Shown piece after piece: positions 29,827 to 63,747 of a DNA stretch of 64,000 nt. A program made the position numbers and the translations under genes. The notes beneath the pieces are model-generated. The model was not told where the DNA came from and searched no databases. It saw only the letters and a list, made by a program, of their open reading frames with translations. The first letter of the stretch is position 1. Each line of letters starts with the position of its first letter. The DNA comes from an uncultured Octadecabacter sp. (GTDB lineage Bacteria > Pseudomonadota > Alphaproteobacteria > Rhodobacterales > Rhodobacteraceae): the NCBI GenBank assembly GCA_937891785.1, contig CALAGN010000030.1, positions 4,526 to 68,525 on the forward strand. The letters run 5' to 3'.

Positions 29827-31446
29827 ATGGCCAAGGATAAGAAACAGCCCCGCCCCAAGGCGATCACGCCCAAAGGCTTTCGTGACTATTTCGGGAGCGA
29901 AGTCGCGGCGCGCAACGCGATGCTGGAAAAGATCGCGGCTGTCTATCACCGCTACGGGTTTGATGCTTTAGAGACATCCGCCGTTGAGACGGTCGAGGCT
30001 TTGGGCAAATTTCTTCCTGATGTGGATCGCCCCAACGAAGGCGTGTTTGCATGGGAAGAAGACAGTGATTGGCTCGCTCTGCGCTATGATCTGACCGCCC
30101 CCTTGGCGCGCGTTTTTGCCCAGCACCGCAACGATCTACCGACCCCTTATCGCCGATATGCGATGGGTCCGGTTTGGCGCAATGAAAAGCCCGGACCAGG
30201 GCGGTTTCGCCAGTTCTATCAGTGCGATGCCGATACGGTAGGGTCCGGCAATGTGGCCGCCGACGCCGAGATTTGCGCGATGCTGGCCGATACGTTGGAA
30301 GCGGTTGGGATTGAACGCGGCGATTACGTGGTGCGGGTGAATAACCGTAAGGTGCTGAACGGCGTGCTTGAGGTCGCGGGTCTGTCCGGTGACGACAAAG
30401 AAACCGAACGCGGCATCGTGCTGCGTGCGATCGATAAGCTGGATCGGTTGGGCGTTGAAGGTGTGCGAGCACTGCTGGGCGAAGGACGCAAAGATGAGAG
30501 TGGCGACGTGACTAAAGGTGCTGGGCTGAGTGATGCTTCAATTCAGAGAATCATGCAGTTCGTTTCTGCTAACGAGATAATTCGACAACAGCTGGCCACG
30601 GAAGTCGCTGACAATTTGAAGAGCGATCCAACTCGTGCACTCACTGCCCAAATGATACGCAAATCGCGTGACACTGAGCTGGATGAATGGGGCTTCACAG
30701 AAAACGATCGTAAAGGTCTAAACCGAGTCACATTGGAGTATCTTCAAACAGTAGTAGAAGAGTCTGAGATCGGTCTGCAGGGCGTCCAGGAACTAGAAAC
30801 TATTGCTAAGTTACTTTATGCTCAGGGTTATGGTGCCGACCGTATCGTCATCGACCCTTCGGTCGTGCGTGGTCTCGGCTACTACACTGGTCCCGTTTAC
30901 GAGGCGGAACTTACCTTTGAAATCAAAGACGAAAAGGGCCGTCCGCGCCAGTTTGGGTCTGTTGCAGGTGGTGGCCGTTATGATGATCTGGTGAAACGCT
31001 TCACCGGCCAAGAAGTGCCTGCAACGGGTGTCAGCATCGGTGTGGATCGCTTGCTTGCCGCGCTAACCGCCAAAGGGCGCGTTGATGCGGCGCAGGCTGG
31101 TCCTGTTGTTGTTACGGTTATGGATAAGGACCGCATGGCCGACTATCAGGCGATGGTCGCCGAACTGCGCAATGCGGGCATTCGCGCCGAGGTCTATCTG
31201 GGCAACCCCAAGAATTTCGGCAACCAGATGAAATATGCCGACAAGCGCAACAGCCCGATTGCCGTGATCGAAGGTGGCGATGAAAAAGAGCGTGGCGTGG
31301 TGCAGCTGAAGGACCTGATCCTTGGCGCACAGATCGCGGAAAACGCGACCCTTGAGGAATGGCAAGAACGCACGAACCAATACGAGATCTTGCGCGATGA
31401 TTTGGTCGAAAAGGTCCGCGAAATCCTCGAAAGCCAAGCCAAGTGA
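29827..31446 (+). CDS. hisS: Histidine--tRNA ligase with an enlarged insertion domain
   Basis: [47 protein letters not shown]; 539 aa; start ATG 29827. Confidence 0.96.
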
Positions 31447-32537
31447 GGGGCGCTGTCGCCAAATCCGCAGCACGGGCCGAAGCCGCGCGCCTGATGGCGC
31501 ATTTCGCGGATGCGGGCGCGGTGCCTGTGGAAACGGCGTTGCTTCAACCTGCCGAAACCTTGCTGGATTTGTATGGCGAAGACATCCGCGCGCGGGCTTA
31601 TGTGACGGCTGACCCATTGCGCGGTGAACAGATGTTGCGGCCCGATTTCACGGTGCCTGTCGTGCAAATGCACATGCAATCCATGGCCGAGCCTGCGCGC
31701 TATTCCTATGCAGGCGAGGTGTTTCGCAAGCAGGAAATGGACGAAACACGGCCCACTGAATACCTACAAGCGGGCTTTGAGGTATTCGCAGCCGATGATC
31801 CAGCCGATCGCGACGCCGAGGTGTTTTCAGTCATTACAAACGCCCTCGCGCCGCTGAAATTGCGTGCCGTAACGGGGGATATCGGCGTGCTTTTGGCCGC
31901 GGTGCAGGGTCTTGCCACAACGCAGGCACGCCGCGCAGCGCTCACGCGCCATTTGTGGCGGCCAGCACGGTTTCGCGCTTTGCTGGATCGTTTTGGGGGC
32001 CGCACCGAAGCGCCCGCCAGCCGCGCCGCCCTTCTTGCCGCAAGCGATCCCTTTGCCAAAGCGGGCGTTGAGGTCGGCTTGCGTAGCCATGCCGAGGTTG
32101 CCGCACGGATTCATACCCTGCGCACCGATGCAGCGACTCCGCCGATTTCGGATGAACAGCGTGCCCTTATTGATGCCATCTTATCGCTGCGTGAAACTGC
32201 GCCCAATGTCCTGATCGCCCTGCGCGATATTTCGGTCGATCTGCCCCATGTCGGGCCTGCGGTTGATCGGCTGTCTGCACGGCTTGATGCGCTGGACGCG
32301 CGCGGTGTCGATGTGGAAACCTTGGCATTCGAGGGCAGCTATGGCCGCACTTCGATGGAATACTATGATGGGTTCGTTTTTGGACTTTATGCTGATGATC
32401 GACCTGAACTGCCGCCCGTTGCCACGGGTGGGCGCTATGACGCGCTGACCCGCGTGTTGGGGCAAGGGCGCGGCGTGCCGGCGGTGGGCGGTGTGATCCG
32501 CCCCGAACTGGTCGTGCAATTGCGAGGTGGATCATGA
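31443..32537 (+). CDS. hisZ: ATP phosphoribosyltransferase regulatory subunit
   Basis: [38 protein letters not shown]; lies between hisS and a short hisG. Confidence 0.93.
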
Positions 32538-62880: not shown

Positions 62881-63336
62881 TCAGTCGAACTTGCGCGACG
62901 GTGCAAGCACAGTGGCTAGGCCAACCAGCACCTTCTTACCATTCACGATGCAACGCGTATCCATAGTCACACGGCGCTTGGCGTTGTCGATCTCGATGAC
63001 CTCGACTTCGGCTGTCACCACATCACCGGGACGCACGGGGCCAAGGAATTTCAGGCTTTGGCCAAGGTAAACCGTGCCATGTCCAGGCAACTGTTCTCCG
63101 ATCACGGCGGACACCAACCCTGCGGTCAGCATCCCATGCGCAATGCGCCCTTCGAATATCGTGTCTCTGGCGTAGACGTCATCCAGATGCACGGGGTTCC
63201 GGTCAGTCGAAATTTCTGCAAATAATTCGATATCGCGGTCGGTGACCTGCTTTTGCAAAGACCGTATCATGCCTATCTCGATGTCCTCGATACAGATCGT
63301 GCCGCGGGGGATATTGTGGCTCATGTTGTCCAGCAT
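62881..63336 (-). CDS. MaoC-family (R)-enoyl-CoA hydratase (PhaJ-like)
   Basis: FAEISTDRNPVHLD, RIAHGML, LPGHGTVYLGQSLKF..PV.PGD; start ATG 63336 preferred. Confidence 0.88.
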   Translation of the reverse strand: MLDNMSHNIPRGTICIEDIEIGMIRSLQKQVTDRDIELFAEISTDRNPVHLDDVYARDTIFEGRIAHGMLTAGLVSAVIGEQLPGHGTVYLGQSLKFLGPVRPGDVVTAEVEVIEIDNAKRRVTMDTRCIVNGKKVLVGLATVLAPSRKFD

Positions 63337-63466
63337 GTCGCGTTCCATTCAGTAACAAATTGTCCCTACTGGGGTAATATTTGTAACTTTATTACTTTGC
63401 AGATGTAGAAAAATCAACCTTAAACAATGGTGTTTTCCGCGCCTTCGGTGCGAATGCCTCACCAGC

Positions 63467-63747
63467 TTAGCGTATTGCGCAATCGAACATCGCGCGCAGT
63501 GACAGGCAATCGCGCGTGGTTACAGGCCTGCATCCATAACTATGATTCCACGCTTTGGGATGACGGATCGAAGGCCGGTTACTTCGGCCCCTTTGACGGC
63601 CTCGCGCAGGGGGGAAATGGGCATGCGAGGGCTTTGGACCAATACAGGAATCGGCAGGAACGCCCACTTGCCAAAGCGCCACTGCTCGAAAAGCGCGGCA
63701 AGCGCGCGCTCGGTCAGCAAGTCTTGAGTTTGATTTGCGATTATCAT
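63467..63747 (-). pseudogene. GntR-family transcriptional regulator remnant
   Basis: GAGG plus ATG 63747; LTERALAALF..PISPLREAVKGAEVTGL.SVIPKRGIIVM resembles the GntR wHTH; frameshift near 63527, then PVTTRDCLSLRAMFD and a stop at 63467. Confidence 0.6.

Follow-up and report, generated by a model that had tools for sequence, protein, structure and literature searches.

A low-GC segment of hisS in an Octadecabacter-level genome, very likely one allele of a hypervariable cassette swapped by recombination

The window analyzed here is a stretch of 64,000 nt (contig CALAGN010000030.1) from a bacterium of the Rhodobacteraceae, the genus of which is probably Octadecabacter. It carries hisS, the gene for histidyl-tRNA synthetase (HisRS), and within this gene an in-frame segment of low GC content, here called the cassette, that is located in the insertion domain between the core segments of the enzyme (Table 1). 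The hisS product matched tRNA-synt_His (PF13393, 8e-38), tRNA-synt_2b (PF00587), and HGTP_anticodon (PF03129) in Pfam, and together with the matches to solved structures this reveals a catalytic core and a C-terminal HGTP anticodon-binding domain. The nearest solved structures are those of the Nostoc (3NET), Elizabethkingia (6NHI), and human cytoplasmic HisRS, while the E. coli and Thermus structures are more distant from the window enzyme. Directly downstream the start of hisZ (31443-32537), which codes for a HisRS paralogue, overlaps the hisS stop codon. The genome to which the window belongs is 99.99% complete and gave a single HisRS match, hisS, which is the sole HisRS of this genome and therefore essential.

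Table 1. Positions of hisS and of the features around its cassette (numbering of the window; aa, amino acids of the hisS product; ORF, open reading frame).
Feature	Position	Strand	Basis
hisS, histidyl-tRNA synthetase, 539 aa	29827-31446	+	ORF from ATG at 29827, Pfam
Left conserved anchor, 11 residues, aa 170-180, end of catalytic core	30334-30366	+	Invariant or near-invariant in 86 homologues
HisRS insertion domain, aa 184-338, maximal extent varying among alleles	30376-30840	+	Lies between Pfam core segments
Tract replaced relative to allele L100, 42.6% mismatch	30447-30840	+	Alignment of alleles
Low-GC cassette, aa 229-338	30511-30840	+	GC and codon usage
Extra arm missing from short forms, about aa 248-300	30568-30726	+	Alignments, AlphaFold2 model
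Right conserved anchor, 19 residues, aa 338-356	30838-30894	+	Near-invariant residues; right breakpoint common to all alleles

The original prediction for this locus had described a low-GC segment with many A/T-ending codons in a HisRS of 539 aa. Its GC counts, 140 of 300 at 30541-30840 (0.467) and 75 of 120 at 30361-30480 (0.625), were reproduced exactly, the ORF starting at 29827 has the length given, and the conserved anchors that it had named on both sides are present (15 residues at aa 220-234 and 16 residues from aa 338). Its delimitation of the variable segment, 30510-30840, holds in part: the cassette lies there, but the variable unit is larger and takes in the whole insertion domain from about 30373 in some alleles. 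Among the 300-bp stretches of the window (mean GC 0.574, standard deviation (sd) 0.030) only 0.14% are as GC-poor as 30541-30840. A single other place of this kind, 63131-63510, is mostly intergenic and looks ordinary; it spans the 5′ end of a gene for a MaoC-like dehydratase (62881-63348, minus strand) and the adjoining spacer.

Expected values of GC and of GC at third codon positions (GC3) were conditioned on the residues of aa 229-338 and on the codon usage of the own genome. The observed GC of 0.470 was 5 sd lower than expected (0.545, sd 0.015), and none of 5000 simulations gave a value as low. The preference for A/T-ending codons is reflected in a GC3 of 0.418 versus 0.637 expected and in 18 rare codons among the 110 of the cassette, compared to 12 among the 429 of the hisS core. 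Amino-acid composition accounts for about one third of the GC drop, and the remainder is foreign codon usage. The AT-richness was not explained by an overlapping gene or an internal promoter, as neither a notable ORF nor a promoter-like site was present in the segment. Ranked among the 1389 ORFs of at least 300 aa in this genome, the 100-codon GC3 dip inside hisS is the ninth deepest; dips of at least this depth were seen, for example, at C95 (680-aa ORF, codon 140), C73 (485-aa ORF, codon 325), and C141 (503-aa ORF, codon 200).

Two genomes of the same genus, G002 and G001, encode HisRS of 493 and 490 aa, which lack about 46 residues at the cassette site. This agrees with the difference of about 45 aa that the original prediction had given for typical roseobacter enzymes, and it means that the segment is not of similar length in relatives. 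In a scan of 40 relatives both proteins matched the window HisRS only over aa 1-250 and approximately 300-539. Identity between the G002 and the window enzyme amounts to 97.8% for aa 1-228 and 94.5% for aa 339-539, versus 45-55% for the alignable parts of aa 229-338, and synonymous codon identity at conserved residues drops from 63% in the core to 39% in the cassette flanks (p = 0.008). Third-position identity between the congeners is only about 65%, and since synonymous sites are this heavily diverged between the species, comparison of the congeners alone cannot exclude fast divergence of the segment in place. The drop in codon identity at conserved residues is one hint against it.

A much closer comparison became possible by searching 5.8 billion proteins with the full-length HisRS and comparing the metagenome contigs that carry alternative alleles to the window. 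The search returned relatives with cores 99-100% identical to that of the window and wholly different insertion domains. P0004 (537 aa) has a different long cassette, P0006 (493 aa) a short one, and P0013 (514 aa) combines a first half of the insertion domain of another type (type B, see below), including an additional insert of 21 aa, with a short second half. The respective contigs are syntenic with the window, with SlyX, C92 peptidase, hisS, and hisZ genes on all of them, dnaE upstream on L100, and hisG downstream on L097-L100, and they are 97-100% identical to the window across about 7 kb of flanking genes. Between L100 (P0004) and the window the flanks from dnaE to hisG differ by 0.3-1.1% and the hisS core by 2-5%, while 42.6% of the positions mismatch in 30447-30840. 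For L101 (P0013) the corresponding values are 0.9%, 1.6-2.6%, and 43%, and for L097-L099 (P0006) they are 2-3%, about 2-3%, and 35% mismatch plus a gap of 138 bp. Just upstream, in 30251-30446, L101 is 22% divergent from the window and L097-L099 contain a tract of 11% divergence.

The transitions are sharp. The right breakpoint, at about 30836-30845, is common to all alleles, and the codons for the DRIVIDP motif at this position are identical (GACCGTATCGTCATCGACCC). The left breakpoints differ and are located within conserved codons of the core or shortly behind them: the nucleotide alignment places that of L100 at about 30447, that of L097 at about 30537, and that of L101, the leftmost one and just past the left anchor, at about 30373. 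Over 101 codons the cassettes of the window and L100 share 38.6% of the nucleotides and 29.7% of the amino acids, with cores that are 96-97% identical. Short and long cassettes in the near-identical contigs differ by 44-46 codons. Compared to G002, the short allele L097 has a nucleotide identity of 80-83% across the insertion domain and of 85-88% across the core, which shows it to be vertically inherited and native to the genus. Its codon usage is normal, and the cassettes of L100 and L101 are AT-shifted. Altogether, at least four alleles occur in one Octadecabacter-level background (the long form of the window, an unrelated long form, the native short form, and the type B form with its upstream insert), and at least six occur in the genus. 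In all three near-identical backgrounds the cassette is the only replaced tract within about 7 kb. As is typical for mosaic genes, hisS switches abruptly between near-identical and highly divergent sequence in a syntenic, near-identical background.

Several of these alleles were recovered repeatedly, P0006 from three samples, P0004 from two samples, and the window allele on 27 contigs, and this recurrence in independent samples makes assembly chimeras unlikely. A scan of JGI metagenome contigs for exact matches to conspecific alleles added one record of the same species. Apart from the cassette, L097 and L098 differ from the window by about 645 bases around 28353, upstream of the C92 peptidase gene, which looks like an ordinary indel polymorphism.

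These data demonstrate recombinational swapping of the cassette within one species-level background. Very likely, the low-GC segment represents one of several alleles of a hypervariable cassette that lies in frame in the gene of an essential, single-copy HisRS and is swapped by recombination. The original prediction had proposed a recombination-exchanged hypervariable module in an essential enzyme, and this view is supported by unalignable cassettes in contigs that are otherwise 97-100% identical, by the sharp breakpoints, by the foreign codons, and by the scattered occurrence of long forms in the family.

For the latter, we surveyed one genome per genus of the Rhodobacteraceae and scored the insert as present when hisS gave a single full-length match. 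A long cassette was found in about 40 of 295 genera with hisS (about 14%, or one in seven) and in none of 38 other alphaproteobacteria with the same type of HisRS. Ninety hisS genes were aligned, and a core tree was calculated from aa 10-180 and 346-535. The short forms, outgroups included, all measure exactly 77 residues in the aligned region, compared to 123 in the window, and the short form is therefore ancestral. Long forms carry 9-73 added residues, all at one site, with an unalignable center and weakly conserved ends (A-x-x-x-(I/V)-x-x-x-L at the outgoing end and (R/W)-N-x-x-(T/V)-(L/I)-x-(Y/H)-L at the return end). Among the 120 best homologues the length of the cassette region clusters at 119-128 aa, with a mode of 123. 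On the core tree the long forms are scattered, with 22 state changes of which at least 8 are forced by well-supported branches, and the window, G002, and G001 make up a clade with 99% support that contains one long and two short forms. The approximately unbiased (AU) test rejected a single clade of long forms (log-likelihood difference 550, p 9e-91), and monophyly of the long forms was discarded. The history of the segment is incongruent with that of the remaining gene.

Similarity of the inserts is uncoupled from that of the cores (r = −0.06): there are pairs with unrelated inserts although their cores are 91% identical, and the inserts of L045/L055, L050/L065, L003/L058, and window/L037 are recognizably homologous despite cores that are only 78-85% identical. 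In the last pair, 53 of 122 cassette residues are common to the window and L037, which comes from Actibacterium sp. 188UL27-1. One genome, G275, has two identical long-form hisS copies on different contigs (C5:341688-343301, L068, and C13:919712-921325, L069), an unusual situation for this otherwise single-copy gene.

The first half of the insertion domain (about 30376-30530, aa 184-234) exists in two types, of which type B reads VLRTIDKFDKVG...GRLDASGAYIDGVGL. Comparison of aa 184-234 revealed types A and B also in L008, L004, L019, L020, L056, L058, and L060-L062; the congener G001 has type B, and both types pair freely with short and long second halves. A second variable unit, upstream of the cassette, is thus formed by aa 190-240 with its types A and B; it changes six times on the core tree and is incongruent with it.

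The composition of the cassette was followed through the long forms of the family. GC3 of the insert is below that of the core of the same gene in 44 of 44 long forms (mean difference −0.29), and for GC this applies to 43 of the 44 (mean −0.126). In the homologous sequence flanking the insert, GC3 is offset by −0.24 in long forms versus −0.04 in short forms. When GC3 of the cassette is plotted against GC3 of the host core, all 43 distinct long forms lie under their cores with r = 0.61 and a slope of 0.62. Since cassette GC3 tracks that of the host, a single common low-GC donor pool is unlikely, and this explanation was dropped. The pattern favours an intrinsic AT bias combined with partial tracking of the host. 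We best read the AT shift as the result of weaker GC-favouring forces (biased gene conversion in heteroduplexes or codon selection) acting on alleles that are too divergent to pair, and also of incomplete adjustment to host composition after transfer.

In order to get an idea of the shape of the cassette, AlphaFold2 models were calculated from 86-sequence alignments for the window allele (model mc24fe5850573, mean predicted local distance difference test score (pLDDT) 68) and for P0004 (mean pLDDT 74). The insertion domain reached a pLDDT of 80-95 in both models; part of the catalytic core was modelled poorly because the alignment is shallow in diversity. The two unrelated alleles are predicted to share one framework, consisting of helix 236-246, an outgoing helix 248-266, a connector of low confidence, a return helix at about 292-310, and helix 314-332. 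The connector is predicted to comprise a helix (268-280) and a loop (281-291) in the window allele and one loop (267-291) in P0004. In these models the cassette is an antiparallel helical arm with a variable tip on the enzyme surface, and the arm would lengthen a helical hairpin that short forms are predicted to close by a tight turn. The HisRS insertion domain presumably covers the active site close to the acceptor stem, which we treat as a lead only. Since short and long alleles occur side by side in one species, catalysis should not depend on the arm.

The alleles are probably exchanged by homologous recombination with a double crossover (gene conversion), in which the near-invariant codons of the catalytic core would serve as arms. 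Such exchange may happen among members of a population and, now and then, across lineages. A plausible vehicle would be the gene transfer agents (GTAs), which are common in Rhodobacteraceae. Searches for the origin of the cassettes showed that those of the window and of P0004 are each private to their own population among the 5.8 billion proteins. An exhaustive HMMER search of 1.84 billion representatives yielded six weak matches, of which the best were HisRS fragments of other long forms with 38-41% identity. The nearest relatives outside are HisRS cassettes with 38-48% identity, and in contrast to what is expected for a mosaic gene, no identifiable donor lineage emerged from these searches. 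Since no cassette was found in two different backgrounds at high identity, the alleles may be imports from unsampled lineages or, equally well, old ones that are kept within populations while recombination homogenizes the flanks. Diversity is raised in the hisS core beside the cassette (2-5% versus 0.3-1.1% in the flanking genes of L100), which fits old within-population alleles as well as repeated imports.

Several points weigh against a cassette that is swapped and kept for a function. For none of the cassettes was a donor found in our searches, and long-lived alleles within populations fit the data as well as a recent import from another extant lineage. The arm is missing in 86% of the genera and in some conspecifics, so that it could be neutral in function. 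The alternative alleles were obtained from metagenome assemblies, yet they recur across independent samples, and a portion of the catalytic core was modelled with low confidence, as described above.

Nevertheless, five observations speak for a polymorphic surface that is maintained and under structural constraint, and against junk: long forms prefer about 47 extra residues, the helix ends are conserved, the fold is common to unrelated alleles, replacement is concentrated at one spot, and the diversity of the core is raised. Several unrelated alleles in one background and the elevated diversity of the flanking hisS core may, but need not, reflect balancing selection. It is quite possible, although short of probable, that a factor docking on the arm exerts diversifying or negative frequency-dependent selection; near-neutral tolerance of the arm is only slightly less likely, and other functional roles are less likely still. 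More specifically, the arm might be a contact surface, decoy, or shield in an intracellular conflict, in which a phage, toxin, or competitor factor docks on the insertion domain, which we regard as rather unlikely. Lineages would then escape by swapping in-frame cassettes through the invariant codons of the core, and negative frequency-dependent selection would keep the diversity. The original prediction had tentatively named a toxin, a phage protein, an inhibitor, or a role as interaction surface as the driver, and our protein, phage, and plasmid searches found no antagonist.

The alternative that survives best, possible but doubtful in our view, is that the cassette is a neutral passenger, a tolerated insertion devoid of function that drifts and is carried along because the flanking core codons recombine well, with no selection maintaining it. 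The coexistence of short and long alleles in one background, the 86% of genera without the arm, the center of the insert that is unalignable even between close cores, and the low confidence of the tip in the models are all in agreement with this, and AT drift and rare codons fit weak constraint. On the other hand, drift alone would hardly hold the long forms so tightly around 47 extra residues, with conserved motifs at the helix ends and a common two-helix framework. Nor would it lead us to expect that replacement within about 7 kb is confined to the cassette in each of the three near-identical backgrounds, that adjacent core diversity is raised, or that the homologous flanks of the insert shift their codon usage in long forms too.

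A recent one-off import from a donor of lower GC content (phage, plasmid, or distant bacterium), outside any standing polymorphism, would explain the foreign codon usage and the absence of the insert from the congeners. We consider it improbable, as the one background holds at least four alleles and the genus at least six, and about 40 genera have cassettes of their own with a GC3 that tracks the host. The searches of both protein sets revealed no donor, and phage and plasmid collections contained no source of the cassette but only distant phage HisRS genes and short-form hisS borne on chromids.

Still less probable, indeed very unlikely, is vertical inheritance of a weakly constrained loop that diverged very fast in place and was never exchanged. 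At a synonymous third-position identity of about 65% between congeners an unconstrained peptide would indeed become unrecognizable. This does not hold for contigs that differ by 0.3-3% in the flanks and 2-5% in the core, yet have cassettes with 35-43% mismatches and length differences of 44-46 codons, and it would lead us to expect neither the sharp breakpoints nor the rejection of a single origin of the long forms by the AU test. By these sequence comparisons, in-place divergence of a vertically inherited loop is excluded.

A small mobile or self-removing element (of the type of a Rickettsia palindromic element (RPE), a mini-intein, or an intron) or the variable region of a diversity-generating retroelement can hardly be credited, although the cassette keeps the reading frame, has a low GC content, and occurs in some relatives only: its genome contains the insert DNA a single time, with no template or sister copy, the insert has no match in Rfam, no significant terminal inverted or direct repeats, and no target-site duplication, Pfam detected no intein or homing-endonuclease domain, about 46 extra residues are too few for an intein or intron, the insert is not similar to short-form HisRS and hence no internal duplication of the enzyme, and homologous flanks are replaced as well. 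An RPE was also discarded as neither dispersed copies nor a palindrome were present. For a retroelement variable region a second copy in the genome was lacking, reverse transcriptase was not searched for, and the alleles are unalignable and of unequal length, unlike the outcome of retroelement-driven point mutagenesis.

Recombination has generated mosaic genes such as penA of Neisseria and pbp2x of pneumococci, which consist of alignable orthologous blocks from commensal donors, with beta-lactams as the selective agent. Like these, hisS has divergent blocks in a near-identical essential gene, sharp breakpoints, and exchange anchored in conserved coding sequence. It differs in that its alleles are unalignable and about 46 codons apart, in that the product is a cytoplasmic enzyme of translation, and in that donor and agent have been identified only for penA and pbp2x. 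Flagellin FliC and type IV pilin have a hypervariable center between conserved termini and are extracellular targets of phages and immunity. The conserved scaffold, the exposed, length-variable, recombining middle, and the many unrelated alleles within and between species are common to these proteins and HisRS, but HisRS is cytoplasmic and essential, and any antagonist would have to act inside the cell. RPEs are selfish in-frame insertions that occur in multiple copies, are palindromic, and belong to families with a recognizable consensus. With the cassette they have in common that they are short in-frame additions at a surface-exposed position of a housekeeping protein; the cassette is single-copy, non-palindromic, and restricted to one site of one gene.

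For aminoacyl-tRNA synthetases, Andam, Gogarten and colleagues described homeoalleles, divergent coexisting forms that are swapped by recombination and have patchy distributions that mimic or blur ancestry (PMC3191353). Homeoalleles are whole-gene types, usually two, whereas hisS keeps a vertically inherited core and exchanges only a cassette of 330-470 bp, of which dozens of types exist. Replacement of the whole gene was rejected for the window, as the cores are 95-100% identical and vertically congruent (99% clade) and only aa 184-338 or 229-338 differ.

The enzyme type also has to be considered. ARAGORN located tRNA-His(GTG) of the own genome at C40:80174-80250, with a G1:U72 pair and discriminator A73 (5′ GCCGCC, 3′ GGCGGTACCA). 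G1:U72 and A73 are the criteria for alphaproteobacterial tRNA-His without G-1, and the partner of this tRNA, characterized for Caulobacter, is a divergent HisRS "containing several unique insertions" (PMC3064791). From these marks, the window HisRS would be a class IIa enzyme of the alphaproteobacterial type that works without G-1 of the tRNA. A second ARAGORN call, tRNA-His(ATG) at C15:4770-4844, is dubious and probably a false positive. Insertions specific to G-1-independent HisRS are known from Caulobacterales, Rhizobiales, and Rhodobacterales (PMC3064791, citing Ardell and Andersson 2006 and Wang et al. 2007). The window HisRS is of the same enzyme type and has an insertion domain enlarged relative to the E. 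coli type. Those insertions define clades, are fixed, and co-evolved with tRNA identity, whereas the cassette is polymorphic and limited to the minority of Rhodobacteraceae genera given above, with no occurrence in the 38 other alphaproteobacteria.

The literature that we searched contained no description of such a cassette polymorphism in a core translation enzyme. Here, an essential single-copy synthetase exhibits a cassette polymorphism like that of flagellin, pilin, or phage receptors, with unrelated alleles in strains that are about 99% identical. Aminoacyl-tRNA synthetases are usually regarded as slowly evolving, vertically informative housekeeping genes, and hisS should be used with caution as a phylogenetic marker in Rhodobacteraceae. 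If selection maintains the diversity, something inside or entering the cell would recognize HisRS via the arm, pointing to a hitherto unrecognized layer of phage-host interaction or competition that is testable by allele swaps. If the cassette is neutral, it would provide a natural system for studying how conserved codons act as recombination arms of in-frame modules and why such modules drift towards AT. The arm may also be a natural permissive site for engineered insertions in HisRS.

One further protein concerns the same site. P0005, a HisRS of 686 aa from a Rhodobacteraceae metagenome contig of 53 kb in ENA, has an apparent internal tandem duplication of about 190 residues. The region from about aa 60 to 250, including motif 2, is repeated inside the insertion domain. 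This could be a true duplication that hit the same hot spot, or the contig could be a chimera of the assembly.

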